A DNA stretch of 53,103 nucleotides, filler included, from Bipalium vagum (GCA_037834085.1; 3 parts of 3 records of this genome joined end to end with filler, not necessarily neighbours in it); one strand, 5' to 3'. Positions 790-51,611 are shown, counted from the first letter of the whole stretch. The notes: generated by a model not told the origin, from the letters alone. A program made the numbers and translations.

Positions 790-1645
790 TGTAGTTATTT
801 ATTTAGACCACTTAAAGGATAATTAATTATTCAGCTCATGCAACTTAAAAGCTTCCGGTCTATCCATTACCTAATAAAGAGATGGAATATTTATTGGCTA
901 CTCTATATAATACGATACGAGAGAGTCAGTTGAAATTTTGAACTCGAGGTTGAAAAGGAAGAATTAAACTCCTTTGTCTCGTCGTGGAGACAGAAATAGC
1001 AATTAGAGGCTATTGATGGAAATAGCCGTCTCGAAGCGTAGGAATTGGTGATCGTAGCCGAATCTCTGCGACTATATAAAGAGACGGCTATACCTGCCAA
1101 TTTGCTAAAAACGCTAATAGATCAGACTAACAGAGGACGCTCATTTACGAAAGCTACAACTAGCAGGACGACTACGAGCCGACGCAAGGATATTAGGTAT
1201 TTTTCCGTGGATATGACAACGCAGAAGGATTTCACAAGGTGACCCAGTGAGGTTGGGAACCCATAGGCCGGGGTTCCCTTGTCGCTCTTGGTGAGACCGT
1301 TGATATTTTCTTTTTGTATTGATTTTGTGTCACTTTCAAAGAATTTTCCTTTGTGGTTCTCTCTCTCTTCTCTGTAATTTTAATAGTAGTGTGTTTATTT
1401 TATTATTATTTCTGTTGTTGGACTTATTAGAGATTTTTCGAGGTGATCGCTATATTGGGATTGAGTTTTTGTCAATAAAGTTTTATTGGTGACGTTTTGA
1501 TTCAGTTCTTATGGTGCGGATACAGTATTATTGGTGGTGTTTTGATTCAGGTAAAGTTTGAGAGGGAAAGAACACAACCTTTTATAAAAGTTAGGAGTTA
1601 CGAGCACACGAGTACACCTTACTACGTCAACGTATAATAGTAACA
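790..1645 (+). mobile_element. Solo-LTR-like repeat, copy 1
   Basis: TG...CA ends, TATA-like CTATATAAAG (~1071) and AATAAA (~1474). Shares collinear blocks with 51612-52484 (ATGACAACGCA, CCAGYGAG, TTGTCG..TGGTGAG, AAAGAACACAAC). No clear TSD; ends are approximate. Confidence 0.55.
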
Positions 1646-7999: not shown

Positions 8000-8420
8000 C
8001 AGGGGTGACATCCAATGAGCTATTACAAATAATAAATTAAAAAATATATGTTCAACAGGAAAATATCCAGGAGACTTACATTTAAAATCCTTAAACCATT
8101 TTAATAAAAGAAATGCAACGCATGGATTTACTGGGCCTGGCTATTGATAAATGTTTAGAAAAATATAATGAAATATTAGAAAATACTAATATTTCCCCTA
8201 TTCCGAAACCTGGTTCGATTCCAATAAACAGAACTGATCAAGTAGCAATGAAATATGATTTAAAAAATATATCAACTGATTTCCAAGATCGTCATATTGC
8301 TTATGTTGAAATGATACATGAAATGAACAATATTCAAAGTCAAACACCAAGAGAAAAACTTGAAAGAATGATAATAAAATTAATTATGAAAGGAGAAGTA
8401 ACTTTAAGATTAGGATTAGA
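8000..8420 (+). pseudogene. Parvovirus-type phospholipase A2-like protein of the Maverick
   Basis: YPGDLHL...GFTGPG (Ca-loop-like), then after a frameshift PINRTDQVAMKYDL...DRHIAYVEMIHE...REKLER...IMKG..LGL. Confidence 0.7.
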
Positions 8421-8499
8421 AAAAGCAAGTAAAAATATTGCAAATGAAAAATTATTTGAAGACAAAGAAGAATTAAAACCAGAAAATGAAAAACAATCA

Positions 8500-8990
8500 G
8501 TAAATGAACTTCATAAAGAATTTAGAAAGCTTAAGCAATTTCTGAAAGTTAAAGTTAAATAATAAAGATGATATTTGGAGTGTAGATTTAACCTTTGTAC
8601 CAAGCGAAAGAGATTCGACAAAGTCTCGTCAGCCGAAGTCGAATAATAAAATAATTTTAACAGTAATTGATTTACGAACAAGATATGTGTTTGCTGTTCC
8701 TTTAAAAAAACTGGAAAATCTATAACAGATGCTTTTGACGAAATATTTGGAGTCTACCAAAGAAAACCTAAAAACTTTGGGTTGATAAAGGTATTGGATT
8801 TACAATAAGACATTCGAAGATTTTTGTGATGATAATGAAATAGAAACTTATTCAACAGTTAATAAAGGTAAAGCTGTAGTTATTGAAAGATTATTAAAAC
8901 TTTGAAGAATATGATGTTTAGAAAATTTACAAAAGAAAGTAACAGAAAATGGTTAAACTTATTATCAGATTTAATAAATATTTATAATTG
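8500..8990 (+). pseudogene. Retroviral-type (rve) integrase of the Maverick, 3'-truncated
   Basis: ELHKEFRK...DDIWSVDL...ILTVIDLRTRYVFAVPLK...WVDKG...KAVVIER...KW. All three catalytic D,D,E positions are visible across frameshifts. Confidence 0.9.
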
Positions 8991-8999
8991 TGGAGACTC

Positions 9000-9703
9000 A
9001 AGAAAAACTGAACTATTTAACAATTTTTGATCTTGAATCTTTTTATTTTTAATTTGATTTTAATAAAAATATTAAAAGTGTTTTTGTCTTTGTCATTTGT
9101 AAAAACAAGAATCCCTAAAAAATTAAATTGAGACCTAATAAGAAACATTTAAACCAAATATTTGACTTGCATTTTGGAAATCACCAATATTAAAAAGTAT
9201 AAATGTTTCTGGTCTAAATATCACTGAAAATAATGATGGATATTTATTTGGAAATGTTTCTTATTCTTTAATTGAACATTTAACAATAATATTAGCTGCA
9301 GAAAAAATCAATTATAAAAAAGATGATATTATAAATTTGGGAACAGAAAATAAATATCATGTTTTTGGTTGGTATAATAATAATAGGAATTATTTTGTTG
9401 TTAATGGAAAATCTATAGGACAAACAGAAATAACAGAATCTAAATTCAGAACCGATTTAATATTTTTAAAATGTACTAAATCACTTTCTTTTCCAACACA
9501 TTCATATTTTTTGTATAATTCAGAAGACAAATATTCAACCATTTTTCCATCAAGTAGTAAGTATGAATTTCAATTTAATTCAAAAAATAAAAAAATTTAT
9601 GAAATCATAATATTAAAAGAAATTTATTTAAAAGTGAAATGGAAGAGATTGAAATTTTTATGAAAAAGTTTTATCCAAATATACACTACAATGTAGCGTT
9701 CTG
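9000..9703 (+). pseudogene. Viral ORF remnant, possibly a LamG/concanavalin-like domain
   Basis: YHVFGWY...YFVVNGKSIG and C-terminal IYEIIILKE..(frameshift)..SEMEEIEIFMKKFY. Confidence 0.4.
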
Positions 9704-9774
9704 AGACTTCGTCTCAATTTTATATAATTTAGAAAAAAAATCTTTACATTTCTTTTCAAAATTAATATTAAAAA

Positions 9775-10463
9775 ATGGAAATTGAACCAACTGCTCCTTT
9801 TGAAAAACTTTATTCAAATTTAGAAAGTAATGTAAATAAGAGAAGATTATCTTCCAAATTTATTTATGAAGATTCTAATCCTTTAATAGATCAATTAGAA
9901 AAATTACAAATTGAAAATTTTATGAATGAAACAAATTTTTAGAAGACTTATTAACACATTATAAAAAATTAAAATTTAAATATACAAAAATAGATTTACA
10001 TTTAAAATTAGAAACAAATGCTGTAACAGGAATTGTTGGAGTTAGATCTGTAATAATGAAAGGAGTTTCTATTTTAGGAATTGAATTAGTTATTTATATT
10101 CCAATTGGTAATTCAATTTTTACTGCATTACATTCATTTATTACTTAAACAATTAGTAAAAATATTACAAGTAAAAAAAAACTTTAAAGAAAAATTTGTG
10201 AATCAATAGAAAATTCAATTATTAAAGTTTTTATTTTTCAAATGAAAGCATTAAAAGATAAAATATTAACTAATGAAGAAATTGAACAAGCAAAAATATT
10301 TTTTAATGAATGTAAAGAAAATATTAAAAAAATAAAAAATGGAAATTTTATTGAAAATTTTAAAAATGAAACTAAGAAAGAGTTGAAAAAAGAATTGAAA
10401 AAAGAGTATCTAAAAAAGTTAAAAGTTTATAAATTTTTTTTTCTTTTTATTTTTAAAAAATGA
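9775..10463 (+). pseudogene. Viral membrane/coiled-coil protein with N-terminal PTAP
   Basis: MEIEPTAPFEKLYSNL start, a Gly-rich hydrophobic middle (AVTGIVGV...GVSILGIELVIYIPIG) and a Lys/Glu-rich C-terminus. Frameshifted. Confidence 0.55.
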
Positions 10464-10714
10464 GTGCAATATTTAATAAAAAAATATTTTAATTAAACAA
10501 AATTTTATATTTATTAGAAATGTTTCCTATCTTTAAAAATATTGTAATTAACTCCCTTCAAGATATATATGATTTTTTGGAAATAGAATATTTTGTCTAC
10601 CCTTGGTAGTCGAGCAGCGTTGCTGCTTATTTTTCCATGGGAATAATTATTTTAATTGTTTTTCTCAAAAAACACAGTTATGGTGCTACTAATTTTTTTT
10701 CAAAAAAATCGAAA

Positions 10715-11618
10715 TGGATGCAAATCAAAATTCAATCAATCTTAAAAAAGAATAGAAAATTTTTAAAAAATTACAAGAAGTAAAAAAGAAATTTGAAACT
10801 AATCAGTAAAATCAATGGAATGAAGAAAGAGGACTTCAACAAGATTTAACAATTTTTCATAAACCTGTTACTGATGCAGTTAATAAGTCTAAACAAGAAA
10901 CAAAAAGTTTACAAAACGAAAAAGAACAAACAGACAAAGAAAAACTAGATAAAAATACTTCTTTTATAACAGAGGAAATTGGAGTACAAAAAAGAATCGA
11001 AGCTAAAATTAAAGATGAAATAACTTATAATATTTTTAATAAAAAAATTAATCAACCATCACAATATGAAGACCTTAATTTTGAAAAATATTTTCATATT
11101 AATCAAGAATTACCACCAACATTATTACCTTCAATAAAAAATAATATTTTAACAATAAATAAAGTTTCTTTTGAGTTATTTAAAATTGATAATGAAATTA
11201 ATTTTACAAAATAAAATGAACTACTGTCAGGAGTATTATCAGAAGATTTAAAATCATTAATTGAAGATGAAAATTATAGTAATATTTTTTATAATAAGTG
11301 GACAAGAGATTATAGTTTAGAAGATTTGAATCATTATGTAGAGCTAATAACCGATGTTAAAGGAGCAATGAACTCAAAGTATGTTCAAAATATTAAAAAT
11401 AAAATTAATCAATTACAAGATATAGAAAGAGCAGGATGTTATAAAATTTATAAACCAAAATATACTCTTGCTCAATTTATAACTTTACACAAATATTGAT
11501 CCGCTAAAAATCAGGACATGATAATCTTGATCATTTAATTTTAAAAATTTTAAATAAATTAAAAAAACAAAATAGAATTAAAGAAAAAAATTATGATAAA
11601 CTAATAAAAAAAATATAA
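10715..11618 (+). pseudogene. Maverick accessory ORF upstream of the penton
   Basis: Mostly open frame (DLTIFHKPVTDAV...) ending GHDNLDHLILKILNKLKKQNRI, interrupted by stops. Confidence 0.5.
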
Positions 11619-11650
11619 ATTACTTTTTGATTGAATTTTTTCTCTAAAAA

Positions 11651-12460
11651 ATGGAAAAAGCGACAAAAGGTCTAGATAATTCTGTTGTCGTTTTACAAAA
11701 AATATCAAATCTTTTATCTAAAAATTTTTCAACATCATTTGTTGTACAAAGTAAAAATTCCGATATTACCTTTAAATTTCAAACTTTTTTAGTTCTTGAT
11801 CTTAATTTTAACTATGAATTATCATTAGTTTATTTTTCTACTTTTAATTCAATTTTTAATATTAATGAAAACAATAATAAAATAATTGTAAAAGTTACAG
11901 ATAGTAAACTTAAACCAAAAACTAAAAATATAAGTTTAACTCCAAGTGCATATGAAATTGAAGAAATGTCAAGTTATTGAAAATGTATTTAAATATGATA
12001 AAAGTTTAGAACCATTAAAAGATATAGAATATTATATAAAAATAAAACTAAATACAATTTCTTTAAATTATCTAATGAAAATATCAAAAGGTTGTTTTAT
12101 TCAATTTCTTAAAGAAAATTCTTTAGCTACCATTTTAGGATTTGAAACTGAAAAAACTTATGCAGAAAGAATTCAAGAATCTAAAACAGTTAATATTTCA
12201 AATATAAATAGAATTATGATTGATTGTAATATTGTTGAAAGAGCATTTTTCAATGAAGAAAGAACTAACACAACTTTTGATTTTCCTTCAAATAATGGGC
12301 GAAAAGGATATAGAATTATTGAAAGACCAAAATTTCCAATTTATTTTTCTTTGATTACAAAAAAAATAATGAAATTAAATTTAAAATAATTGATGATAAA
12401 GGAAAATTAATATATTTTAATGGAGAAGAAAATTGTTTTACAATACACTTAAAGCAGGTA
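11651..12460 (+). pseudogene. Minor capsid (penton-like) protein
   Basis: YELSLVYFSTFNSIFNI, PSAYEIEE, SLATILGF, VNISNINRIMIDCNIV, GYRIIERP..PIY, IIDDKGKLIYFNGE. Two frameshifts. Confidence 0.85.
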
Positions 12461-12555
12461 AAACTAAAAAATATTTTAAAAATATAAAAATTCTGTAAAA
12501 TTGATTATAAAATCGTATTCGTTTTAATATTTGTGCATTTATTATTTTTTAGAAA

Positions 12556-13828
12556 AGTGGTGCATAATTTTTGGCACCCCTGTACAAAAAAACGAACGAA
12601 GACTTAATATTTATTTGATTGCCTTTATTTACAAGTTCTACTAGGCGACTTCTAAAAGTATCCTATAGATTAATAATAACTGATCTTTTGTTTGAATTGA
12701 GGTGAAAAAAGCCTTTTACGATTTCTTCCTTTAATTCATTTAGAGATGTGATTGATGATCTATCATATATCACATCTTGCAATAGTTTCTAGATTTTTCC
12801 ATCAGGTTCAGATATGCAGATCGAGCTGGCCATTCTATCACTGGAAATTGGGCGTCAGCCATACAATCTTTTACTACCCTTGCAGTATGTATTCTTGAAT
12901 TATCCTGCTGAAACAAAAATGCGTTACCATAATTCAATTTGCAAATAGGCACAATAGTTTGACGTAGTAGCTGAATGTATTGACAACTTCTGAAGTCTCT
13001 GTCTAAAATTCTGAATGACAATAGACCATTTGGTAAAACCATTGCCCAAATCATAACACCTCCACCCTTTTTTGTTGCCTGGGAAGAAAAATTTTTTGTT
13101 TTGGATAAACAAACGTTTGCCAATCATCTAACCCATCAAGAGAAAACCATTTTTTCGTCTGAAAAAATCGTTCGCTTCCATGGATGGTTTTTGGCTAACC
13201 ACATCTTTCCTAATTCAGTCCGTTTGACCTTATCTAATGGGTTCAGTGGCAAACTCTTTATGATTTTCCTGTATCTCATACTATGTTGATTCAGGTAACG
13301 TGCCACAGTAAATCTGGATGCTGGGATATTGTACTCATTTATCAATTTTTGACAATTAACTTTTTCGCCACTGTTGTGCATACTAGCAATTTTTCTATTT
13401 AGCCTTAATTTGTAGACGGCATTTAATTTAGTCTTTCTTCCTCTTGTCTTCTGAATCCGTACCTATCTTTTTAAACATATTCTGCTCACACAATCTTTGG
13501 AAAAGTTATTTCATTGTAGCTTTTTTCATATTGTCTTAAACATAAAACTGTATTTTTTTTTACTTCAGTCTTCATAACCATACATGAAAATTGTAAATTT
13601 TATATCTCGTCAAAATAACTTACTTTAAATTAAAATATAATGTGGGTGTTAAAAATTTTGAACTTATGCAAATTATTAAATTCAATATTTAAAAAAATAA
13701 TTAATTACTTGGGTGAAAAATTCTTTAGTTAATTAATATTTATAGTTTACATAAGTTTATATCATTATAAACTTAATTCAATAGATAATACAAAGATTTT
13801 TAAGGGTATCAAAAATTTTGCTCACTAG
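12556..13828 (-). mobile_element. Tc1-like (DDxE) transposon inserted in the Maverick
   Basis: WKRTIFSDEK, GGGVMIWA, FQQDNSRIH, WPARSAYLNLME. Imperfect inverted ends AGTGGTGCATAATTTTTGGCACCC / GGGTATCAAAAATTTTGCTCACT. Confidence 0.88.
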
Positions 13829-13834
13829 TATATA

Positions 13835-14351
13835 TAAAAAATTGTTTTGAATCAGGATTATCAAAAAATGAGATTTATAAAAAGTTTAAAAATAAATTAA
13901 AAATAAAATTTAATGAAAATAAAGATTGTGAATTTGAAGAAAAAACAATAAAATTTACATTGAGTGATAAAGCAAATAAGATTCAACCTTCTGATAAATT
14001 AGATAAGAAATTTAAAAATTTAATTATTTTTGATGATGTAAAAAATGAAAAAATCAAACTATGAAAATCTATTTTACAAGAGGAAGGCATAATAAATATT
14101 CAGTAATTTATTTATCTCAATCATTTTTTGATTTACCTAATACTATTGTTTTTATTTTATTTAAAATTTCAAAAAATTATAAAAATCAAATGTATTCAAA
14201 AATGTTAGTTCACTTCATAGAGAAAGATGATTTTGATTATTTGTATGATTTTCATATGAAAGAAAAATATAATCATATTTTTATAAATTTACAAGATGAA
14301 AAAATATTATCTTCAATTTTTATATCTACTTGTAAAAATATTTTAACTTAG
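13835..14351 (+). pseudogene. A32/FtsK-like packaging ATPase, N-terminus (Walker A) missing
   Basis: Walker B LIIFDD followed by YFTRGRHNKYSVIYLSQSFFDLP. Confidence 0.85.
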
Positions 14352-14354
14352 ATA

Positions 14355-15368
14355 AGATTTATCAGTAGAAAATTTAATTATTTAGAAATTTGTTAAAATC
14401 CAACAACAGCAACAAATTTAAATAAAAATGGAAATTTAACTCTTAGTTTATTACAAACAGCAAATGCTTTGGATTAATCAGAAGCAATTCCAGTTTTTGA
14501 AATTGAAATAACAAATATAAAAGCAGATGAAAACATTACATTACAAAATAACCTTTTTCCTTTTTTATTTTCTAATGCAATTTTAAAATTAGGATCAACA
14601 AAAGTAGAAACAATTAAATATTTAGGAACTTAAAATTCTATAAAAAATTTTTTATTAATTGATAAAATAATGATAGAGAAAATTTTGGATGAGTTCCTGA
14701 TAAAATTAAAGAAGATCCAAATAAAGTTAATAAAGGATTTAAAACAAGAAAAAATTTATTGGTGAATTTCCTTTAAAATTAATGTTTGGATTTTTACAAT
14801 TTTTTAATAGAGATATATAATATGCAAGGATAATTAACTTTTACAAGAAAAATAGATATTGATAAAGAAATATTTTATGGAACAAACGGAGATGGAAAAA
14901 TAAAATTACTTGATTTAAAATTATTCATTTCAGAATTACAATTAAATCTTATTAGTGAAATGAATTTAATTTCTAGAATTGATGATGAAAAAAATATGTG
15001 TAAATTTTTTATCAAGACATTGTGAAAAAAGAAATTTAACAGACGAAACAACTCTAACTTTACAATTATATAATATTCCAAATAAACCATTTTATATTTT
15101 TATTGGACTTAAAGAATCCGAATTTGAATTTACAAAAAATAATACTTTATTTATTCAAAAGAAAATAAAATCTTTAAGAATACAAGTAAATAATTCTTAC
15201 TATCTTTTAAGCCTTGTTCAATTTGAGAAAGGAAAAATATTATCTTTATTAGAATTTCAAAATTTATATTTTATATTTTGTTTTGAATTGAAAAATAAAC
15301 CAGAAAATTTATGTTTAAATGGAGTAGTTATAACTTTACATATTTTAAAAGATAAAGATTTTAAAGGA
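14355..15368 (+). pseudogene. Major capsid (double jelly-roll, hexon-like) protein
   Basis: NLNKNG.., ITLQNNLFPFLFSNAILKLGSTKVETI, FPLKLMFGF, KPFYIFIG, IKSLRIQVNNSYY, YFIFCFEL. Lies directly after the ATPase. Confidence 0.75.
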
Positions 15369-15455
15369 AATGACCATCATTGACATCCAAATTAAAACGC
15401 GATTCATCAGAAAACACGATTTTATTCCAGTAGTCAATTTCTTTTTTTTCTAGTT
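15369..15455 (-). mobile_element. Short Tc1 transposase fragment
   Basis: Minus strand reads EIDYWNKIVFSDESRFNLDVNDGH, the first catalytic Asp motif. Confidence 0.75.
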
Positions 15456-16014: not shown

Positions 16015-16114
16015 NNNNNNNNNNNNNNNNNNNNNNNNNNNNNNNNNNNNNNNNNNNNTTAATTAATTAANNNNNNNNNNNNNNNNNNNNNNNNNNNNNN
16101 NNNNNNNNNNNNNN
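16015..16114. other. Assembly gap containing an artificial TTAATTAATTAA spacer
   Basis: 100-bp N block with a central 12-mer that has stops in all six frames. The same construct occurs at 32782-32881. Confidence 0.9.
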
Positions 16115-18636: not shown

Positions 18637-21600
18637 TTATAGTCCCATAATTTTATTCACAATTCCAGATGAAAAACTTCCAGGAAATGTATAGAGGAAT
18701 AATGCAATAATTAACAATGCCATCAATATAACCAAAATTTTGATTAGGATCCATTTTAATCTGTATTTGATAAAGTACATTATAGTATTGAATGGATTCA
18801 GGAAACTCAGAAATGACCCATCTGGGCGGCTATAAAAATATATCCAATATAACGTTGATGATATTAGTACATCAAATAGATGAAAATTTGGTTAAGATAA
18901 TACTTTACAAAAGTTGGGGAAAATATATAAAACTTGTATACAAATGTGATGAAATTTTAAAGTATCAAATTGTTGAATTGGAAATGTCGTTTTACCTTAA
19001 CATTTTAAAATTTTGCTTATTTTTGTTAGATGATCAATTTTAAGTTTACCCTTACATGTTAAATCAATTTCGAATCCCGTAATAGCCTGATAAATTGTGG
19101 ATCTTGGAACATCTTCTGTTTTTGAAAATGTTCAACAAAATCAGATCGACTTATTTGTAAACAACATATATGTATTCAAAAACTAACTATTTTTCTACTT
19201 AGTTATTTCTCTAGGTCACGTGTTACAGATAAAATAATGTAAATCGAAGATAAAGAAATCGATAAGTTTATTTAAAATTGATTTTTATTTTCTAAATTTT
19301 AAATGTCTTTCTTAAAGTATTTTGAGACAAAATTCATTATTGACCGCGCGTTGCATTGTGTCATATGAAATGTCAGATTACATGATAAATAGAAAAAACA
19401 ATGAAACAAGAAAATTTTTTATTCAACTAAAATAATCACGATTACATTAAATGCATCTTTGCTGACTTATCCGGGTTTGAATATTATTTATGTAAAAATA
19501 TCATTATAACTTATTATTATAATTTATAAATAATTATCAAATATAACTATAAATATAAGTTTCAAATGAAAAAAATACTTCGGTTTTTCTAATGGCATTG
19601 GTTCATCTCTGGCAAGACCTACTGGGTTTGATTCTGCTTCTTCAGTCGTTACTAACTCCATTTCTATTTCTGCACAGCCCTACTCAAAAATTAAAATGTA
19701 ATAATCCATAAAGAAAAAATTCCTTTTGATTCGATGATATATAAAGAAAGGTGTGGCAATAGTAACAGCCTTTTTGGTATTATATAATTTTATTATTCAT
19801 TAGTTTTGTGTGACATATTTTTGGAAATAATTTATTTTGATTTAATTATAATTTCAGATAAATATAACTATGGAATAAAAAAATTAAATTAATTCAGCAT
19901 TATTATGGAAACAATAATAATGTGCTGAAACCTGACGTTGTTTATCTGAGGCATTAAACATTGAGTATGTGCAGAGTCGAAACATCAGAAGCCCAATTAT
20001 TAAATTTGAAAAATAGGAAACTTAAGTGATGCTCCCAGATCATGAAAATCAATTTCAGCAACAAGTAAGAAGACGGCTATTAAATTAAAAGAATAAGCTA
20101 TTTCTGATGGATTTTAAGTAATAAATGTAGAAATGTGTCAACAGGTTGGTAAATATGTTGTTGGTATGGTTCAATGTTTTATTGAGCATGGAAGAAAGCA
20201 TCTTGAATATGTTACTTTAATTTTTTTAAGAAATCATTCTTTTAATGATTTTTTTAATTATTATAATAAATTACTGTACAAAAAATATTACAAGATAAAA
20301 AAGAGAAAAGAAGAGTAAACGAGCTGTTGATGCTTATAAAAAAACTTTTATGTATCTCGGGATGATGTGCTAACACATCTTGTGTGCCAGAAATAGTTTT
20401 CAAAATAGAATTTAATTAGATTTTAATGTAATACATCTTTGTATACCCAGAACAATTTTTTGAACTTTAGGTGGAATTTTTGTCTCATTTTACCTCATTT
20501 TATTTGTTAAAGATGAAATAAGATATTTTTTTCATTTTAGGATCATGAACTGCCATCTTCATTTTCCATCTGATTATAAATTATCATCATAATTAAAATA
20601 AAAAAAATAATGATACCAAACTAAGCGCTTTTTATTGTAATATTTGTAATAAATATTTAAAAGCAAAAACATCTTTAATATCACATCAAAAATAAAAATA
20701 TATTTAAATAAAATAGAATTAATTTATTTAAATCAAAAACTTATTTGATGAACCATATCAAAATACAGAAAAAATGTAAAATTAGAATTTTAAATAATAA
20801 AAAATGTATTAGTAAAGTTATTTCATAGTATTAATCTCCAATTTTTAAAAAAATTAAAATAAAAATACTAAAGAGATTATCTAACTTTATATATTAATCT
20901 TTAATTATTAAATATTAAATTACTGATTAGTTAACTGATTCTGGTTGGGTGTTTAAGTGTATTAAAGAAAATAGAATTGACTTAAGTTAATATCAATCAT
21001 TAGTTATATAAATTAATATAAAATCTCCTTATGTAGTAAATATTAAAAATAATGATAATAAATGTTATTTATATTCAATAATTGCAAAATTTCATCCAGC
21101 TAAAAATCATTCTACAAGATTAAATAATTACGAGATATATAAATGAATTTAATTTAAGTGATATTGAGTTTCCTTAAAGGCTTGATCATATTAATAAATA
21201 TAATAAATAATAATATTGAAGTAAACGTTTTTGAATTAAATAATGAAATAAACAATTTCTCCCCTTCTTTGAATATTGGAAGACAGACCCAAATCATAAT
21301 GAGAGACATAAATTTATTATTAAATTAAAACTATTAAGTATTATGTAGGAATATGAATATATTTTCAAATGATAATAAAAATAATACTGTAATAATAATA
21401 AAATAATAAAAATAATAATGTAAGTATATATGCATGAAATGTTTAAATTCATATAAATCAATTAATTTATTAAATGAACATATTAATACTTGTAAATAAT
21501 ATAAAGAAGCTAAGACAAACTTTCCAAAAGAGGATTTTTGAATTTAAAACTAATATTTTAGAAATATAATACCATTTGTTATTTATGTTGATTTTAAATG

Positions 21601-24600
21601 TAATAATAAAAATTATTTTAAAGATCTTAAAAATATTAGGCAACTTCTAATATCAATAGGATTATATATAAAATCAAATTATGATGAATTATATTAATTA
21701 AAATATATTGATATTTATGATGAGGATATAATTGATAGATTTTGAAATAAATTAAGAAAAAACAATGATATAAATAAAATATTTAGAGTGACAAATAAAA
21801 AAATAATTATGACGGAAGATAATGAGACAAATTTTAATAGTTCTAAAGAATTTATTTAATAATAAAGATGTGGAAGAACATACCCATAAAGTCCGTGGTC
21901 ATGATCATTTAAATGGTGATTATAGAGAAGTAGCATACCATAAATGTAATAAAAATGTCTTTATTATATTTTATTTTCATAATGGGCCAAGTTATGATTT
22001 TCACCTAATTTTTAATGAATTTGGAACAAGATTTCTCAATGAAATAGAAAAAAATTGGTTAATACTGTTGAAAAATATATTTTTATTTAGTTGGAGAAAT
22101 ATTAGATTTTTAGACTGATATAGAATGTGTACGCAAAATGTCTCTGTTGGGAAAATGGGGGATATTTTATTAGAAACAAATAATCATAAAATATTGAACT
22201 CATTCAATTTAAAACCTTAAAAATAAGTTTTCCTTATTATTATAAGACTGGGGATAATTTTAATGAAATTTATGAAATATTTAATTCTAATAAAGTTCCC
22301 ATACTTATGAAGATTTTTCCAATGATTTAAAACAAGAATATAACTAATAAAGAAGATAAAAATGTTATAATAGATTTTAATAACTATAAAAATATGAAAG
22401 ACTATATTTTATATATTATATATATTATTTCATTATACTGATCCTTGCTATTGTTGTTATTCCTTATCTGGTTTATCATGGAATACTGGTCAAAAATATT
22501 CTAAAGTGAAATTAAAATATCTAAAAATGAAACAAATAATCAATTATTAATGATTGAAAAATGTACAAGAAGAGGAGTATCATCATTATTAGGAAATAGA
22601 TCGATTGAATTAAATAATAAAATAATTAATGAAAATTGGTTTTATTTATGAGGTTGATTTAGAATGTCGAAAGAATTAAAAAATCCAACAATATTTTTCA
22701 TTTTGACCTGAAAAAATAAAAGTAAATTCTAATTTTTAATAATTTATTTTAAATAATAATGTGAGATTAGAACAAAATAAACAGTGTTCGTATTATAAAA
22801 TATAATTTACTATGAAAACCTTATGATTTCAAGAACCTTTAATTAAAATGTTCATGTTAAGCTTTGTTTAAGCAGGGTTCATATTAAACAGACTGCACTT
22901 TAAATATTATAATATGTATGTAGGTATATAATAATAAAGGTATATAAATAATATTTTATATTTTGTTTTGTTATACTATTTTAGTTAATTATTTATTCTC
23001 ATCCACGATAGTCACCTGACTAGCTCTTACTGACTATCATTTATTTAGGTCGCTGCAAAAAATTTTGAAAAGGAAATCATGAACCACTTAAATGCTTTTT
23101 TTCGTTTTTGCAAAATACCCAAAGGGATTCTACTGGCACGGAATGATTAAATGGACAGAAAAACGGATAAAATTTGACGTTTCATGTTTTTATAAAAAAT
23201 TGAAAAGGATTATTTCCCAACCCAATATAAAGATAGAGAAAACTTTGTAAACAAATATTATTAGTATAAATAGTAAGAAATAAAACTGGACACAATTATG
23301 AAATAAAGTTTTATCAATCCTTAACGAAAAATACAGTTTATTTTATCTGAGAGTTCTTTTTTCAATTACCATTCTGAAATTTATGAATTATCTGAACTTT
23401 AAGTTGATAAATTAAAAAAAATATCAGTATTAATATTTTTTCACAATTAGTTACTATCACACGTAACTTACACCAATTTCTGCACCATCTTCGTCCTCAG
23501 AATCTTCGTCCTTAGGGTTATATATTAGAGGCCACCAGCCTCTGACTTTTTTATTTCTGAAAAGATTAAATTTAGCACAGGCTTCCGTATGTTGAAATGG
23601 GTCACAGGATCTGTAATATTTTGCTGGTTTAGGAAATTTACTCAATCTGAATTTCAGCTTTCCTAAAAACTCATTAAAAGAGCGTTTATGGAGTACAGAT
23701 ACCAATTTTACCGATAATTCTGTCAGCAAAAATAATTCCGGAGTCTAGGACTTGAAGATTAAGAAAACAAGGGGTTTTATATTCTGCTTCATCAATTTCG
23801 TAAACGTTTTTCCGATAATAGACAACGCTGTCCTCAGCTTTAAGATAGTCAAATTTAAAAACAAACCGATAATTGAATAATCCTTGTCCCGACAATGATC
23901 TAAATATCAGTGTGAACATTTTTAACTATCGGGATTATCAATACTTTTAGAAATTATTAGTTTTAGAAAATTAGTTTTAGTTTTCTCTATATTCACAAAA
24001 TATTAATTATTATTAAAGTTATTATAATACAATTATTAGTTCTACTAACCCCTTTCTTAGTAACAACTGTTTACTTTGACTAATCAATTTGAATCTTAAT
24101 GAATGGAAATAAAGGTCATCAGGCTTGCTTTATTATTTATTTAAGGTTTTTAAAGCCTGTCAAAGTATAGATTAAGCTAAAGGTCATAAATTAGGGAAAT
24201 ATATTTTACATTATATCTTTAGTATTGTTCCAAAAATAAAATCATGGCTAAGAAACGAAAATTTTTAATGCAGAGGCTTAAAATGAATTTGTTGAAATGG
24301 GTGATTAATTAAATAAAGTTAAAATAGGTAATAATTAATTAATTAGTTTTATGTATAATTAATTCTTTTAAACAATAATAATAATAATAAATAATTTTGC
24401 AGGAAAAATATTAATATAATATTGAATAATAATTTAATGAAAAATATAATATATATTAGGTTGTCCCAAAAGTTCTTGAGGTTTTGAAACAATTTTTTAT
24501 TAAACACAGGCAACATACGAATAATTTTAAACAAATCAATGTCCATTTGCCTCTACACAGTTCTTCCACAAAATAGGCATTTTTCAAATCTACTCCTGAA

Positions 24601-27600
24601 CCAGTTTTCATGTTTTCCATTAAAAAATATATGAAGCGTTCATGAGGTCTTTTTCTTCTTTAAAGCATTGACCCCGTAAGGACTGCTTTAAAGGTCCAAA
24701 CATATGGTAGTCGAGTGGAAAAAGTCAGGCGAGTAAGTAGGGTGACAAAGCAATTCCCATCAAAATGGGAATTGCTTATTTGGAGCTTTATTTAACAGTA
24801 TGGGATCTGATGAAAAAAGAAAATTTTCGCGACCAAGTTGTGAAAGGAGAACGACGAGGCTTACCATATACTCGGTTTAGTTGGGCTTAATAGACATTTC
24901 CATTGATGGTTTGACTACATAAAAAAGTTCCCAGTGTACAAGTCATGATGTACACTAAATACAGAGAAGTTGTTTTCGTGAGTGAACCAGTTTGGGATTG
25001 GGTTCAGCAATCTGGTTTTTGGGAAACTATTGATTATCTGGTCGGCGGTTATTGTAGAGAACCCAAGACTTATCATATGTTAAAATTTGATTTAAGGAAA
25101 ATTTGGTTTCGTTTAAACGAAGCAAAGCCTTGCAAGCCTGAACAATTTTTTGCCTTTGAACTTCTGTCAAATCATGAGGAATCATTCTGCCTTTCCTGAA
25201 TCGCAATTATTTTTATGCAAATGCTTTTGTATAGAGGATTTTGCCTGTCCAGTTCAGTTAGCCAATTTGCGAGTTTTTTAACGGGTGTTGGTCTTTCGGA
25301 ACGCTGTTTATCATTGGTCGAGGTTCCATCTTCAGAGTTTTTTGAACTAGAATTGGGCTGTTTATATCTTCATGGCCAACGCTTTATTAATATTTCTTTA
25401 TGCTCCGGATGCTGAGTTGCCTTATTCATATTCGTACAGCAGTCGGTCCCTATTGATCAATTTTTGTCTTTTCATTTGACAAACATTATGTATGTTTTCA
25501 AAAAAGTTACTTCTGTTATATTATTCATTGTTCATACTGCCCGGAAAGGTTTCCAAGTTATATTAATATTAAACTTTCGCACAAAATGAATAAATAAACA
25601 ACAATATTAAATTTGTGACAAAGTCAAATCTATAATTGATTTTCAAAATGTTTTACAAAGCGATATATATCTACAATATCAAAAGCGCAATAACTTTTGA
25701 GCCAACTTAATAAATAAATAAAATTAAAAGTGAAAAATTGGCAATAAAATTTTTTTTATTAAATTCTAACCCTGTCTTACGCGGTGTTGTTTTAATTTTT
25801 CCCTTTTCAATTCTTGTATTATGTACATCTTTAAATAAACTTGTTAAAATATAAATAAAGACTTTCTCCTTATTTTTAAATCAAATAATAATCTACCTTT
25901 TGAGATGGTAATAAAATAAACAATGATAAATATCTTACTTGTAATGAACATCAGTCTTCTGTAGGTCAATGTCTGTTGACTTCATCCAACCTTTGAGAAA
26001 AATGTCCACAGTTTTTTCATTTGTGAAGAAATTGACATTAACTAGGCGCACCTTTTCGGTTTGAATGATAGTGAGTCTAAGTTCATAACCAATCGGTTTT
26101 CTAGGAGTTATATCTATTGGAGCCGGTATTGCAGCGCCGGCTGGATACATATCAACCCACATTTCCAGTAAACCTTGTTGAATGCCAGGTTTTTCGGGTA
26201 AGAAAAGTGGACGTGTTTCGATATGCTCAGTAACGAGCTTATTGCCAGGAATGATTTCTTCCCAGTGCTGAAGAACCTCCAAAGCCAATGGTTCCAAAGA
26301 CTTGATTTGAGCTAAATTAATTATATATTATATTTTTATTATCAGAATCGAAGATTAAATTCCTTTTAAAAAAATGTCTATTTCCTTTTTAAAAATAAAA
26401 CATCATGAATAATCTATTTCATAATCACTAAAAGACCTTAAGAAAATGATAATCAAAATAAAAGCACTTCTGAGAGACTGATATATAGCAGACTGTCTAA
26501 TCATTTTTAGCAAGGATGAAATTATTTGGTGTGTGAATTAATTCTATCCGTTTTTAAAATACAAAACCATTTTATAATGAAAAAACAAGTACATGTACAA
26601 TAATCGAAGTATTTCCGATCGTTTTTTTAAAAAAAGATTTAAATAAATTCCTTCTTTTGATTATGACTTTGGATTTATATTATTCAATTTCAAAACTCTT
26701 ATTCCAATGAGAAGCAAAGTGCACTTACACCCGTCGTCATCTTCTATCATGGTTTCTGCAGTAAATGTTTTGCCGCCAATCTCAACTTTATCAGCTATTT
26801 TGTCATATACAGGAGCCTCGATCTCATTTTCTTCACACAATGACTTCAATATAGAGGTCGGTAGCTGGTGATCTTTCCATTTTAGGTAGCCGTGGCTGAA
26901 TAAAAATATTTTTGGAAATTATGAAAAAAAAGAAAAATTTTCTTTTCAAAAAAATTAACTTTGATATATACCAAAGGAAAGTTAAGTTCTAAATTGGAGA
27001 TGCCTCTTCAGTCATAAATTACATTTATAATAATGTAAAATTTTATTGAAACTAGAGCAATCAATAATAAAGGGATTAAAAGAATAAAATATTCTCTCAA
27101 GGCAAAAACAGAGAATGAACTTTTCAAAGTGTTTTTGATGAAGCATAGGAAACATATTCCTCTGTCTGATAATATTCTTCTAAATCAGTGGCATTAATTA
27201 ACCACATTTTATTATAGTTGTACATTATTACTTGTAATTCCTGGATGGCTACCATCATTTTAAAGACCAGCATATTAAAATCAAGGTAATAAAATGTGAA
27301 GAAATCTACTAGATAAAAATCAAAAACTAAAAAATTTTCTAATTTTGTTCTATAATGTTTTAGTGCACCCGATTGGAATAGAATTTTCCAATATAGAGAT
27401 GTGATACTTACCACCGAATATCTCTTCAATTTTTCAGACAATAGATCAAGGAGTAATTCTGTTTTTTTAAGAAAAATTATAAAAAATACTTAGCAGGAAT
27501 TTATTCCTTGAACCTGAATCACTAAATATTGATTATCATTTATTAATTAACATTTTTGAACTGATAGATGTGCTTCAAATAATAATCCTTCAATAACGTT

Positions 27601-32781: not shown

Positions 32782-32881
32782 NNNNNNNNNNNNNNNNNNN
32801 NNNNNNNNNNNNNNNNNNNNNNNNNTTAATTAATTAANNNNNNNNNNNNNNNNNNNNNNNNNNNNNNNNNNNNNNNNNNNN
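32782..32881. other. Assembly gap containing an artificial TTAATTAATTAA spacer
   Basis: Same 100-bp construct as 16015-16114. Unrelated transposon families lie on either side. Confidence 0.9.
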
Positions 32882-34100: not shown

Positions 34101-36081
34101 ACCACGTAATTAATGCAATTTTATTGGTTAAAAATAATTTTTTATTTAATTAGAATTACAATAGTCTAAAGAAAATATTTATATTACTTAGATAAAACCA
34201 ATTGTAAAATTAAAGATATCACTATACATTATAAACACAAATAGTCATTTTATGTGCAATTAAAAGAATGTTACATTTTCAGTTGGATTCTTCCTCATTT
34301 TATAGAATATTTAATTTTCAAAGTTCATTAGAATTTTACAAAATAAAATATTAAAATTGCCTCTATTTTTCAAACTTTATTTTCAGTCTTTATCGTTTAA
34401 TTTATATTAGTTTATTTCTAAGAAGTAAGTCCGTACTGCTCTAATAAAAAATCGAATTAGAAGGCAAATTGGTTAAAATTAAAACAAATTTCAATTACCT
34501 TCGAAAAAAAATTTTAAATTGAAATTAAATATATGTTTACCTTATATTTTAATTGAATCGAAATCTGACGTTTTGGTATTTTATTACCTTTTTATGAAAT
34601 TGCAGCTGATAATTTTTCTTTCTTATTTTTAACCAAAACGATAATAACAAGAAGATTTTTTTTGTCTATTTGCAATAAATGAAATATTTCATTTTTAACA
34701 ATTTTTTTCGATTGTCGTTTTTGAAGATTTACTTCATTTTTTTGAATGTTTCAATGGTGTTTTTATCAGATATTTTCTGCAGAAATTTATAATTTTAACG
34801 AAGTACTTTATAATAGTTATCTTTTTAAATTCTTCTTCGTGGAAAATATTGTTATGCTTTTAGAAATAAATCAAAAAAACTTGCTTGTATATATAAATTT
34901 TTCAGCCTGGTCTATAAATAATAGTGAGACTTTTTATAACATTTATTTGGATTTTGTTCTCTTATCTAATTGAATATTTTAATATAGTTTGTATTTTCAA
35001 AATCTTCTATTTCTCCTCTTTCGCATTAGTATATCACTTAAAAGAAATTCTTGATTTTTTAAAGAAATTTGATTTTTATCACTTCAAAAATCAAGATTTT
35101 AATTTCCTTGTTATTACAGTAAAAACGAAAATAATAAAGTATAACACTAGAAAGTAAATTTAATTTCGTTTTGGAATGTAACTTTTTTCTCATTATTATC
35201 GAAAAATCGATAGGGGAAAATATCTCCTAAAAATTATTTTCTATTCATTGTTATTTTAATGTTTCTCATTTTTAATATTAAAGACCTTTATCATATGAAT
35301 AGAAATAATGAATCAATATATCGTTTATTTCTAATAATATTTTTAGGAAAAGTGTTCCTGCGATCAATGAAATCGTCAACTCAAAATTATTCGGTGTCTC
35401 CATTCATTCAAAGTGGTATAAATCCTCATTCCTGTTTCAGTTTACCGGAAAATGTTGTTATTTCTCAAATATCCAATGATATGCTAATAGGAAATTCCTA
35501 CTTCGACTTATCAGCCACAAGCAATCGAAATTTGACAGGTCTTTTTCAAAAAGTTCCATCTTTAATAAATAATAACGGTGAATACCCAATGCAAAGTCTG
35601 TATTCCCAATTATCACAAATTTAATCATTCCTTTATATTTGTTTATTGCGAATTATGACTGATAATTTGTATATAGAATTTAATTTAGAAAGAATTGAAA
35701 AGTAATTTTTGTTTTCATTATTAAAAATTAGATAGGGCTAGGAAAATATTGTTTTTTCAAAAACTCTAAAAACCCGAACTTCTTCAATATTGAATTTATT
35801 GAAAATTAAATTAATTAATTTTAATTTTTCTGTTTAAAAAATAAAGCTGGTAAATACTTCCTTAATAAATAATATCATTAATGATACGTATATCATAAAG
35901 ACTGAAATATGTGTAAAAATAATTATAGTCAATTAAATAATAAATAGTGCATAGTTTCAGATATAAGAAAAACAAAATATTATGACATTTATTCATTACA
36001 TAATAGTAATAATACTAAATTGGTTCTATTTTCTCTTCATTTTTAATTTTTAGATGATTAACGAATTTTTAAGTTAATATA

Positions 36082-36292
36082 CAGGGTGTTTCATAAGTAA
36101 CTGACTATTTTATTTTTTTAAATTCACAATAAAATAAAATTCACAATTGTCACACGTTCTTTTACTGTGTAATTTTTCATGCTGATATTTTATGATATGT
36201 TGAATATATAAACAAATTATTGATTCCAAGAATTAAAAATTTTATAATAAATCATTCATTTAAAAAATGTCAGTTACTTATGAAACACCCTG
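36082..36292. mobile_element. 211-bp Tc1/mariner-type MITE
   Basis: Perfect 24-bp TIRs CAGGGTGTTTCATAAGTAACTGAC, TA on both sides and a non-coding AT-rich interior. Confidence 0.92.
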
Positions 36293-36986
36293 TATTTGGT
36301 GTAGACGTAAATAATTCTAAATTATTTAAATCGATTTAATGACAATAATATAATTTTGAATTCAAATCAAATCCATTTTATTTAAATAATTATTTAAAGT
36401 ATAAAATATGAAAAATTATCGATTATAATCGCTATTTACTAGAGTAGTTAATCAAAATTTCCTAAGACATTATTAATACAAGTAAAAATAAGTACAACAT
36501 ATCGAGAGAAGTATATAATACAATTAATTAACATTAAAAATTACAGGAAACAGACTGAACGAATACATTTTTATTTATTAAAAGTCTGTTTTGTTGATTG
36601 GGTTTTTTGTTTCAATAAACTTCGAATGTTGAATAAAAGGATAGAAACAAAAAACTTGATGTTTTAGATTCGGCCTCGGTAAAAACATTCACATGTGTAT
36701 GAGCAGCTCTGACCCCTGAGCCACATTCCCCGACTAATTTTCATTTTATATCACAGTCTTGTTTTTCGTCAAATTTTTTTCTTTATCTTGTAAAAGTTTG
36801 ATTCAACATTTTTTAAATAAATCCAATTAATTTTTTATATCAATTTATTTGTAATCCATTTCCAAACGATTTTTCCTATTCACCAATTTTCATCTTGAAA
36901 GCTTTTAAATTAGTTATAGACATTATAAATATAATAAATTATAGTTAAAGTAAGAATTTACATAATACATAAATAAAAAAATCTAT

Positions 36987-42800: not shown

Positions 42801-45800
42801 GTGCCAACAGAAACGGTTCGAAGATAGTTTCTAAAGTTCAAAGGCCAGAATTTTAATCTCAAGGATAATGTTCAATCTTAACACCCATATCGTTTTGATG
42901 ATGATATTTTGCAAAACACCGTTTATTTTTAAATTTTTTATATATTTATGAGGTATATTGAGGTATAGTAAATTCATTTAAACTTACCTTTTAATATATG
43001 CTAAGTTTATTAATAAAATAGAAAAATCTTGTATGAATCAACCGTCATTATCATCTTGACCACTTATTCCTGTTCCTCTTCAAATCATTAACTAGTAGGA
43101 AAATTGATTCATTGGAGGCTGTCAAGAAGCGCTTGGATGATTTCTTCTCCAATAAGCCTATGGATGTCTATCAAAGAGATTTTTCAACTATCAGGCAAAT
43201 GGAGAAGTTTTTTGAAAATATTTGTTAAGTAAAAGTGTTGAAAACTTTTGGATTTTTTCTTTGATTTTCTTTGACAAAATCATAGTAGTTTTTGGATCAC
43301 CTAATAAAATATTTTTCTAAAAAAATATTGTTTTTATATAATTAATTTATTATAATTAAGCTTATCTGTACTGAGAAATTATTATAATTGATTGTATGAA
43401 ACGAATCATGACTTCGTGTTTTAAAGATCTCGTCATTTTTGTAAATTCCAGATCGCCTTCGATAATGATGGCACACATATGATTTCAGTGAGTGGAGATA
43501 AAACTATTAAAGTTTGGCAGATGATTGAACCGCGAAATCTTGTGGCTGAATATTCATTTGGATCATCTGTGGAAGATATTCAAGTATGGAATTAAAAATG
43601 TTATGGTAGTAAACTGATAATTTTTGGTTTCTTAGGTTGGGTGTGCTTGGGTTGGGGATAAGATTTTATCTGTTTCTTTGAGTGGCGAGATTTCTATCTT
43701 CAATTCTTGTGATTTAATCAAAGGTGAAAAGCCTTTTCATACTGTATTGGGTCATCAAAGACCACTTACTGGACTGGCCTATGCTCATTCTCAGGGTAAA
43801 TTGGTTTCCAGTGATTCTGAAGGGAAAATTATATTATGGGATCCTACAACTGGAAAAGCGGAAAATACCTGTAAAAACATCCACTCTAATCAAATTCAGA
43901 GCATTGCTGTCTTTCAAAATAATATTATTAGTGTTGGAGTTGACGATAGATTAGTGATAACTGATATCGTTTCAAAATCAATTAAGTTAGTGATAATTTT
44001 TTTAAAATATTGTGGTTTTTCTTATTTTTGAGATCTAACAAAATTCGATTCACATTAAACATATTTTAATTAAGCTTTTATCTTAAATATTTTCTATATA
44101 TATCACCTGTTTAGACTTATTTTTTAATTGAGAGGTTTTACTTGTAAAATTGTTTTATCTATTAAAGAAAACCCTTTATATAATTTATTTTTTCATTGTA
44201 ACATGTTTTACTAAAGCCATTTAAGCCACTTTGTTTTTCTGTTTTTGTGAAGATTATTTGAAAATGACACTCGTCTTTCACTTATAATTGATGATGATTG
44301 ACTGTAATTATCAGTATGAGATTTTCTTAAAACTTTAAAAGGTTCAGCTTATATAACAAATCTTAATCGTATTGATTTTTTATTTTCGTTACTATCTATT
44401 TTTACAAATAAGCTTTATAGAATTTTTTTGCTTCAGAGAGGAGATAAAATTGACTTCCCAGCCTAGAAAGGTTTGCGTTGTCGATTCCTTAATCGCAATC
44501 GCATGTTACAAGGAACTTATGTTGGCCAATAATACTGAACCATTAACACTGCTACCTGTGTCTTATGAACCATCATGCTTGGCTCTCAGTCCAAAAAAAT
44601 CGATTTTGGTTGCTGGTGGAGAGGTAACAATGTGATTCACGATCAGTGCATCTGTGTTTACATTTTTTTTCATAGGAGCATAAAGTTTTCGTTTACAAAA
44701 TTGAAAGCGATCACCGTTCAATGAAACTGATTTCTGAAATTTCCTTACAAAACACACCACGTGACCTTGTGTTTTCTAACGATGGTTCATTTCTCGTTTG
44801 TGGAGATTCCGACAGAAAAGTTTCTCTGTTTAAAGTAAAACTGTTATTTATTATTGATCAAATTAAAATTTTGTTTTAGGTTGGTAATTTTGAGTCCGGT
44901 GACTCAGATTCTATTTTGACACAATATCACAACGAACATTGGAAATATCACACAGGAAGAGTCAGTTGTGTAGCTATTAGTCCTGACTCGACTCTGGTGG
45001 CTTCTGGATCTCTGGATTGTTCCATTATAGTCTGGAGCATCCAACAGCCGTCTAAGAAATTTGTAATTAAAAGTAATTTTATTTGTTCATTATCCTTAAA
45101 ATAGTGATTTTTTTTCTTTCAATATTTTTGTAAATCATTTTTTTCGTTGAAAACTCTACAAATTCGTATTGATCTAAGTGAATTAGAGAATTAACCTTGT
45201 CGTGTGGTGTCACAATAAAAATTTTATAAGTAAAAAAATAGATTAAAGTGTGTGCTTCGTTGTTTGATTTCAAGAATAATTTCAAAAAGTACTGTTTGGT
45301 TCTTTTTTATTCAACAAATTGATTGGATATTTCGCAATTCTGTGAGGGAAAGTATGTTTACATTTGGTTACATTAATTATGTATCAATGAGTTTCAATCT
45401 TTGCTGCTTTTGAAAAATCAATGGAAAACTTATAAAATGGGAATCACTATTTAATGGATATTGGTTTTTATTTTTTTTTATATATCTAAAGTAGATTTTC
45501 TTCAGCTCTTCAGTATTGTGTACTTGAAATTTTTTGTTAATGAGTTTGTTTGTTTCTTAATTTCTCCTATATCAATATTAGAGATTTTTTTAAATCAGAC
45601 AAATAATATTGATTATCAATAAAATTATTGATCGTGAATTTCCAAAATAAATTATATATATTTAATATATATAATATATTTCTAAATTTACTCATTTCAG
45701 ATGCCCATCCAATGAGTCACATCACGGGCTTGGCTTGGACAGATTATCAAACTCTTTACTCGGCTGGTCAAGATGCCAATATAAAAAAGTGGAAGATCCA

Positions 45801-45810
45801 GTTCACATAA
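39841..45810 (+). CDS. WDR1: WD repeat-containing protein 1 / actin-interacting protein 1, 615 aa
   Basis: Exons 39841-39853, 39896-40023, 40072-40162, 40208-40355, 40400-40580, 40628-40705, 40755-40832, 43452-43583, 43636-43985, 44437-44623, 44676-44834, 44880-45072, 45701-45810 splice in phase (1848 nt). Motifs [49 protein letters not shown]. Confidence 0.95.
42557..43304 (+). mobile_element. Internally deleted mariner in WDR1 intron 7
   Basis: TIRs TTAGGTCATCC / GGATCACCTAA with TA flanks. Traces of N-terminal HTH and DYHLF-like segments. Confidence 0.75.
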
Positions 45811-46225
45811 GCTGATTCAATCAATAATTTTTTGTTTATTTTAATAGCGAAATTTCTAGACAATTTTCAAAATTTGTATTGTGCTTTGTTAAATTATTGA
45901 TTTGCTAAATTATTTTGACAATTAAAATCAATTATTTATTAAAACAGTGTTCTGTTGAATATATATATTTCGAAATTCGAAATTTATTAAAAACACTAAA
46001 ATCGTCAATCTAAAATATGAAATAATGTTGTAATACATATCTGAAATTTATTTCCATTCAAAAGAAAAATAGGCACTTGAGATTTCTAAAGCGAACATTA
46101 TATAACTGAAGCCACCTTCTTTACCAAAAGCGAAAGCATTACGTAGTGGATTTTATTGTCAATGAATGTAGGGAGATAAGGTTTTTTATGCCAAGTTGAT
46201 GAAGATAGTTAAATGAGAAGCAGTT

Positions 46226-50880: not shown

Positions 50881-50899
50881 GAACTGAGGTTCATTTTCT

Positions 50900-51546: not shown

Positions 51547-51611
51547 TTATAAATTTTAAAATATAAAATAAGAAAATTAAATTCATTATATATCGAGATT
51601 TTGATATATTT

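Follow-up and report, generated by a model that had tools for sequence, protein, structure and literature searches.

Why do two repeats that have diverged over much of their length keep one short block in common, and does that block act as an RNA structure? We addressed this question in a window of 53,103 nt of Bipalium vagum DNA (GCA_037834085.1), the window being the whole stretch analysed: three parts of three records joined with filler, which are not necessarily genomic neighbours. The initial annotation placed the block at 1213-1295 in one repeat (copy 1) and at 51955-52063 in the other (copy 2), and read it as a selected cis-acting RNA between a TATA box and a poly(A) signal. All features of the two repeats given below lie on the plus strand.

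Two diverged LTR-like repeats and their surroundings

Copies 1 and 2 are real homologues. Sixty-three of the 83 core columns are identical, and blastn within the window aligned 1213-1267 with 51955-52009 at 76% identity (E 3e-5). A second aligned block lies outside the core, at the poly(A) signal, and scores above 100 of 100 shuffles; the upstream and the T-rich segments aligned no better than shuffles (68 and 38 of 100). In the alignment of both copies, conservation starts at the ATG and stops at the donor-like site. A search of the window for a third copy with nhmmer and a covariance model recovered only the training copies (n = 2), the next best match scoring 10.3 bits. The 21-letter loop pattern had 4 exact matches in prokaryotic genomes as compared to ~9 expected (8.6-11 bits, seed only), and neither core was matched in phage records.

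Both repeats have TGT...ACA termini. Copy 1 is a candidate solo LTR of 642 bp (975-1616) with the 4-bp direct repeat CCTT at both sides, and copy 2 is a candidate solo LTR of 823 bp (51612-52434) flanked at both sides by the 5-bp direct repeat TATTT. The ends are not certain for either copy: alternative candidate ends exist, the proposed start of copy 1 falls 2 nt inside a hairpin shared by the two repeats, that of copy 2 lies ~80 nt further upstream than the homologous position, and the G+C content stays raised past the proposed ends of copy 1, roughly from 800 to 1900. The 3′ end of copy 2 is close to the 3′ end of copy 1 in the alignment. The flanking duplication of copy 1 (4 bp) has a chance of ~0.10 (10 candidate TGT/ACA pairs; background 60/5778), and that of copy 2 a chance of ~0.03 for 5 bp and 0.12 for at least 4 bp (12 candidate pairs); the joint chance of the ends and flanking duplications in both copies is ~0.01. 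The duplications are unequal in length (4 bp vs 5 bp), and both lengths are described for target sites among Ty3/gypsy elements (PMC3286476, PMC2582038).

The core had been placed between a TATA box and a poly(A) signal, and this holds in both copies for the signal and in copy 1 only for the box. The TATA box TATATAAA of copy 1 (1073-1080) lies inside an 11-bp inverted repeat (1022-1032/1081-1091), and the aligned part of copy 2 has no counterpart of it. As an observation in its own right, the copy 1 TATA box is enclosed by a long hairpin (1022-1091, z -3.7) closed by this perfect inverted repeat. Copy 2 showed no such hairpin, and as only copy 1 has the inverted repeat we abandoned a Helitron/Helentron interpretation. 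AATAAA is present downstream of the core at 1474-1479 in copy 1 and at 52275-52280 in copy 2, each followed by a CA that ends 25 nt downstream, in a G/T-rich tract. In each copy the signal falls in the first of two copies of a 35-nt unit (1470-1504 and 1515-1549, spanning 1470-1549, in copy 1; the same unit at 52271-52305 and 52314-52348, spanning 52271-52348, in copy 2), and the alignment contains an invariant 12-mer near the 3′ end (1567-1578, partner 52382-52393). A long hairpin of copy 1 that places AATAAA close to its apex (1443-1523, z -2.6), which recalls poly(A)-occluding hairpins, is not found in copy 2 (z +0.7, -0.1). The TGT...ACA ends, the AATAAA and the G/T-rich tract fit the general LTR plan.

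With a G+C content of ~26%, the window is A+T-rich eukaryotic DNA with short introns. Pfam and ORF scans identified CCT8, a ferlin, a WD40 gene and Tc1/mariner relics, the best named relatives of CCT8 being 57-64% identical and spread across many animal phyla. The Pfam scans took in 26 of 33 ORFs of at least 100 aa, the regions 1-2800 and 44000-53103 in six-frame translation, and 62 ORFs (62-99 aa) within 5300-44000, and in these frames and ORFs no match to an RT or integrase domain was found between or beside the two copies. Copy 2 lies 50.7 kb from copy 1 within the window, with CCT8, the ferlin, the WD40 gene and the Tc1/mariner relics between them. Because of the host genes between them and the lack of an RT or integrase domain in the scanned frames, we take the copies as two separate insertions and not as two ends of one element; a pairing as the 5′ and 3′ LTRs of a single element was rejected on this distance, an identity of ~76% at best and the intervening host genes and Tc1/mariner relics. 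Host genes around the copies and no RT or integrase domain beside them are what solo LTRs would show, and we consider it reasonably probable that both repeats are solo LTRs, diverged members of one retrotransposon lineage.

Further features of the window are recorded here for their own sake. Copy 1 (975-1616), with its TATA box and donor-like site, lies ~1.2 kb upstream of CCT8 (2778) on the same strand and could serve as an alternative first exon. A G+C-rich tRNA-like stretch with a clear T-arm (50896-50975) is probably the head of a tRNA-derived SINE or a tRNA pseudogene; it was not called by ARAGORN, which reported 0 tRNA genes. The cluster of broken, intronless, A+T-rich ORFs at 8000-15400 has no Pfam match and, judged by eye, may be a decayed Polinton-like element, which a Tc1 copy at 12770-13462 interrupts. 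Broken frames at 21300-22400 have a by-eye motif likeness to Polinton-type DNA polymerase B, and the one ORF checked there had no Pfam match. Inverted repeats of 33 nt (94%) with Tc1-like ends, spaced by 151 nt, at 36079-36295 are likely a MITE. A 13-bp hairpin with a 4-nt loop at 24748-24777, near mariner/Tc1-like sequence, is one of the window's two longest uninterrupted hairpins, the other being the upstream hairpin of copy 2 described below. In the gaps at 16015-16114 and 32782-32881, a 12-nt linker with stops in all frames separates two runs of 44 N; another gap, 159 N long (51388-51546), is situated a short way upstream of copy 2.

The main alternative to LTR identity is a Penelope-like origin, because Penelope pseudo-LTRs are described as including the site where transcription starts, an intron whose splice sites are conserved and, at the 3′ end, a 34-37-bp repeat present once or twice (PMC2377424), and Naiads as having no canonical hammerheads and as abundant in invertebrates (PMC8557442). 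If the repeats were Naiad-like pseudo-LTRs without a hammerhead, the donor would open a 5′-UTR intron, the 35-nt unit would be the 3′ tail repeat and the hairpin would stand at the usual place of the ribozyme; both copies do have a donor-like site and, towards the 3′ end, two occurrences of a 35-nt unit. However, the frames scanned held no RT or GIY-YIG remnant beside either copy, there is no tandem partial copy (the 159-N gap hides sequence upstream of copy 2) and no (TA)n target occurs near either end. The 35-nt units also contain AATAAA and lie 40-130 nt inside the homologous end, and the TGT...ACA ends with short duplications favour integrase-type insertion. We regard a Penelope-like origin as improbable.

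A hairpin beside a donor-like site

The conserved core runs from an ATG to a donor-like GTGAG in both copies and contains, as proposed, the same four motif blocks in the same order. Each core opens with a tiny ORF that begins MTTQK, of 9 codons in copy 1 (1213-1242) and 20 codons in copy 2 (51955-52017), and each closes with G|GTGAG. The two cores measure 83 and 109 nt, a difference of 26 nt and not of the 27 nt given before, and the length-variable segment is restricted to one place. Conservation extends to the unpaired loop sequence in addition to the stems.

The donor-like sites (1291-1295 and 52059-52063) are consensus matches; in copy 1 the G+C content drops right after the site. The donor-like site is also the point at which the conserved block stops. 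The distance from donor to AATAAA is 183 nt in copy 1 and 216 nt in copy 2. The word TGGTGA recurs at 1046, 1487 and 52007, so the TGGTGA at the end of the core need not be a donor. A splice acceptor common to both copies was not found; where the 35-nt units of copy 1 end in an acceptor-like CAG, those of copy 2 end in CAA.

A block bounded precisely by an ATG and a GT donor could be the decayed first coding exon of a multicopy gene or of gag, and three synonymous changes within the first 18 codons fit such an origin. The changes are nevertheless spread over the codon positions as 5/3/5, both copies contain in-frame stops and the 26-nt indel shifts the frame. A profile of the two read-through translations, searched against 1.84 billion proteins, gave one weak match (E 3e-4), to an unrelated LRR-dockerin protein. 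The reading as a coding remnant is largely refuted, and we give it very little weight.

The shared stem joins 1234-1245 with 1271-1282 in copy 1 (1234-1282), exactly as first described, by 10 Watson-Crick pairs, one G.U pair and one mismatch. In copy 2 it spans 51976-52050; the 3′ arm lies at 52039-52050 and the 5′ arm, which had been given as 51975-51986, is at 51976-51987. The outer 8 bp of the copy 2 stem are perfect, and the whole 75-nt rod has a z of -3.1. Five of the 12 stem positions vary between the copies. Position 5 is the double change reported earlier, G-C in copy 1 and T-A in copy 2. The two changes on one side only, after which the bases still pair, were likewise confirmed (G.T vs G-C at position 8, C-G vs T.G at position 10). 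The remaining two variable positions, which the earlier description lacked, each lose their pairing in one of the copies, position 7 in copy 1 (T.C) and position 9 in copy 2 (A.A).

Three further helices absent from the initial annotation are common to both copies. The first is a lower helix of 4 bp, 1226-1229 with 1286-1289 in copy 1 (1226-1289) and 51968-51971 with 52054-52057 in copy 2 (51968-52057), which extends the stem to the donor, stopping just before it in copy 1, and adds a second double change and a one-sided (wobble) change. Its pair probability in copy 2 is 0.25-0.93 depending on context, and the free minimum-energy fold of the copy 2 core holds both the stem and the lower helix. 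The second is an alternative helix over the AUG, 1214-1219 with 1279-1284 in copy 1 (1214-1284) and 51956-51961 with 52047-52052 in copy 2 (51956-52052). It is invariant in both copies and mutually exclusive with the stem; it belongs to the minimum-energy fold of copy 1 and lies 7.2 kcal/mol above the free fold of copy 2, and its score of 13.0 is alone no better than chance. The third is an upstream hairpin, 220-240 nt upstream in both copies, which has 8 bp and a 6-nt loop in copy 1 (973-994, z -2.3) and 13 bp and a 6-nt loop in copy 2 (51686-51717, z -6.9, reached by 0 of 200 shuffles), with one double change from G-C in copy 1 to A-T. This hairpin is stronger than the core stem and is possibly a DNA-level or U3 signal.

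Inside the stem the two copies differ. The competing hairpin noted before in copy 1 is present: its 8 bp (1255-1262 with 1271-1278, spanning 1255-1278) have a pair probability of ~1.0 and occupy the 3′ arm of the shared stem. The 5′ arm of this hairpin aligns with the 5′ arm of an inner helix of copy 2 (51998-52004 with 52020-52025, spanning 51998-52025), which has one bulge and whose 3′ arm lies within the extra 26 nt; the chance of such a helix is 0.024, from post hoc shuffles of the 31-nt segment. Copy 1 has probably lost sequence between the inner and the outer 3′ arm. Such a deletion would explain both its competing hairpin and its stem mismatch.

The stem could also be a pairing between U5 and the leader, if the LTR lay upstream and ended with the ACA at 1236 and 51978, the loop were complementary to a tRNA and both copies were truncated in the leader. 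In copy 2, CA-A-TGG is found at 51977-51982 and CA-T-TGG at 52004, the TGTTA of that copy at 51612 is the inverse of the TAACA that ends at 51978, and a block of ~30 nt over the boundary of LTR and primer-binding site is described as conserved between species in some cases (PMC3286476). The core of copy 1, however, contains no CA-(0-3)-TGG, no tRNA model matched either strand of the repeats, and the conserved AATAAA block would fall in the leader. This reading would also require truncation of the two copies at almost the same place, and gag and a second LTR are both missing. We consider this placement of the LTR end highly improbable.

Chance, neutral decay and self-cleavage

The stem is the top ungapped helix common to the two copies. 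Column shuffles of the core attained its score in 0-2 of 1000 cases, and block shuffles of the whole repeat alignment in 0 of 100, under a shared-helix scoring that was chosen after the data had been seen. That the stem is the best shared helix indicates an inverted repeat shared by descent and is not proof of selection.

The strongest rival explanation is that both copies inherited an ancestral inverted repeat which is decaying neutrally, the single double change having arisen by chance. The core would then stand out because it is the most G+C-rich, and hence the most alignable, part of an A+T-rich repeat. Several results agree with such decay. The RNAalifold consensus has 16 pairs, two double changes and an energy of -11.8 kcal/mol; at least two double changes occur in 512-597 of 1000 shuffled alignments, the energy is reached by 147-185 and both are reached by 107-113, that is, by 11%. 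The structure conservation index is 0.37, and letter shuffles within pairs match the observed value in 136 of 500 cases. Substitutions are found in 6 of 24 stem columns as compared to 30 of 96 columns overall. When the helix was fixed from copy 2 alone, which avoids circularity, the probability that random substitution spares at least 7 of the 8 pairs was P 0.088, or P 0.043 if a double change is also required; a double change inside the 8-bp helix has a chance of P 0.31. A null with a fixed structure (P 1e-4) is circular and was set aside.

Predicted folding also separates the copies. In each of four sequence contexts the stem of copy 1 has a pair probability of 0.00, its 3′ arm being engaged in the competing hairpin, and forcing the stem costs 5.2 kcal/mol above the best fold; copy 1 is thus predicted to fold otherwise, as a decaying relic might. 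In copy 2 the outer 8 bp have pair probabilities of 0.90-1.00 and the inner four columns 0.00-0.01 in that register. Against neutral decay stand the z of the copy 2 rod, the coincidence of the limits of conservation with the ATG and the donor, and the variable pairs highlighted in the lower helix and the upstream hairpin, 3 of 3 of which are still paired, two of them by double changes. We judge a neutral relic to be unlikely, while treating it as a serious contender.

The shuffle, letter-shuffle and copy 2 helix tests on the two sequences were negative or borderline and gave no significant covariation. Of the original proposal, the LTR-like setting and a shared hairpin beside the donor-like site, upstream of AATAAA, are supported; selection on the structure falls short of demonstration, since covariation is not significant and copy 1 is predicted not to adopt the stem. 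Two copies are too few to establish a selected or catalytic hairpin. Selection on the fold is plausible, and our judgement of it is evenly balanced.

A conserved loop and a variable segment confined to one place are also what an unrecognised self-cleaving ribozyme, intact in copy 2, might show, and retroelements are described as often carrying small ribozymes (PMC6765202, PMC4209133). On the other side, Rfam gave no match to the core (E up to 5 for the whole window, up to 10 for each repeat) and no pseudoknot was supported in both copies. Descriptor searches used one set of ribozyme motifs and a hammerhead and (TA)n set modelled on the account in PMC8557442. Over both strands they bore out the initial statement that there is no hammerhead or HDV core. 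The CUGANGA and GAAA boxes around helix II were found as an exact hammerhead core in neither repeat on either strand, and the matches with one mismatch (1131, 51952) are not shared. The HDV-like nested double pseudoknot with L3 and the J4/2 cytosine had 0 strict matches; relaxed topologies were found on the plus strand of copy 1 and none in copy 2, and Rfam gave no HDV match. A minus-strand HDV-like reading (P3, 7-nt loop) was rejected after neither strict nor relaxed matches were obtained, the minus consensus being weaker (-7.2 vs -11.8 kcal/mol).

For twister, twister-sister, pistol, hatchet and hairpin ribozymes there was no Rfam match, and short motif patterns had 0 matches, which is a weak test. 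The SECIS pattern (RUGA...AAR...KGA on an 11-13-bp helix) is absent from copy 1, has loose text matches without the helix in copy 2 and has no Rfam SECIS match. Rfam, the descriptors and the protein profile identified the block with neither a known motif nor a coding remnant, the two identities that had been set against a selected RNA from the start. We think it extremely unlikely that the core is a ribozyme; if the fold self-cleaved, it would represent a new ribozyme class. Somewhat broader is the proposal that copy 2, with its rod, conserved internal loops and AUG-covering fold, exemplifies a new class of structured retroelement RNA, which would either self-cleave in place of a hammerhead in a hammerhead-less terminal repeat or act as a switch linking translation start, U1 binding and the choice of poly(A) site in an invertebrate retrotransposon. 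This would be a long shot.

A possible control of splice site access and polyadenylation

The best explanation of the core, offered tentatively from the anatomy of the two copies, is an R-region hairpin that would make a 5′ splice site upstream of AATAAA more or less accessible, in the manner of foamy viruses; the hairpin would be intact in copy 2, whereas in copy 1 it would have decayed. The core would be the conserved part of a long R region, forming an irregular hairpin whose base touches a 5′ splice site, with the poly(A) signal following ~200 nt downstream. In the transcript of the 5′ LTR the donor would be accessible, U1 snRNP would bind it and the nearby AATAAA would be silenced; in the 3′ LTR a different fold would hide the donor and polyadenylation could go ahead. 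The second invariant partner of the 3′ arm, over the AUG of the short upstream ORF, may turn the hairpin into a two-state switch. Copy 2 would have retained the fold, and copy 1 would have decayed, probably having been shortened inside the hairpin so that its 3′ arm was captured by the inner arm.

Among the roles listed in the initial annotation, a regulator of the splice donor or the poly(A) site is the best anatomical fit, given the donor-like site and the AATAAA downstream, and a ribozyme lacks Rfam or descriptor support. Actual use of the donor with U1-dependent control of polyadenylation, as suggested by this arrangement, we find rather doubtful. The predicted accessibility of the copy 1 donor is unchanged with and without the upstream U3-like sequence, and thus the difference between 5′ and 3′ folds that the model requires was not reproduced.

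To our knowledge, the avoidance of polyadenylation in the 5′ LTR has been little studied in invertebrate LTR retrotransposons. If the explanation is true, a solution employed by foamy viruses is in use outside retroviruses. Stem-loops located within LTR R regions are already a known and expected feature, and the hairpin described here would be a further case in a poorly sampled lineage. Our literature search found no description of this core motif, which is weak evidence.

The closest comparison is with the R region of foamy viruses, in which a donor upstream of the poly(A) signal is described as controlled by RNA structure and as regulating polyadenylation; U1 binding silences the 5′ poly(A) site and a different fold frees the 3′ site (PMC3694450). 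The likeness lies in a donor upstream of AATAAA in a terminal repeat, in or beside stem-loops. Here, in contrast, the host is an invertebrate, there are no retroviral genes, no sequence similarity is claimed and the arrangement is known from sequence alone.

Retroviral and Metaviridae LTRs offer a second comparison. In the accounts of PMC3601003 and PMC2664473, residual conservation in long R regions is tied to stem-loops (TAR, the MLV R hairpin, the HML and HTLV R loops) and LTR TATA boxes are often poorly conserved. The repeats described here share with them the TG...CA ends, weak conservation of the TATA box, an AATAAA that is conserved and precedes a G/T-rich tract, and residual R conservation at a stem-loop. 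They differ in that the hairpin lies ~130 nt after the TATA box and not at the cap site, includes a short ORF as well as a donor-like site, and belongs to no Rfam family.

Taeniid ta-TRIM solo LTRs are reported to be spliced to downstream host exons (PMC4558846), and copy 1 resembles them in that it stands alone, with a possible donor, upstream of the host gene CCT8; the TRIM structure is absent here (no second repeat, PBS or PPT). The pseudo-LTRs of Penelope and Naiad elements, as described in PMC2377424, PMC8557442 and PMC4209133, share a donor within the terminal repeat, a duplicated unit of ~35 nt toward the 3′ end and, in the case of Naiads, the lack of a hammerhead. Compared with these, the Bipalium repeats have no tandem arrangement, ORF remnant or microsatellite target, and instead have LTR-type ends with short flanking duplications.
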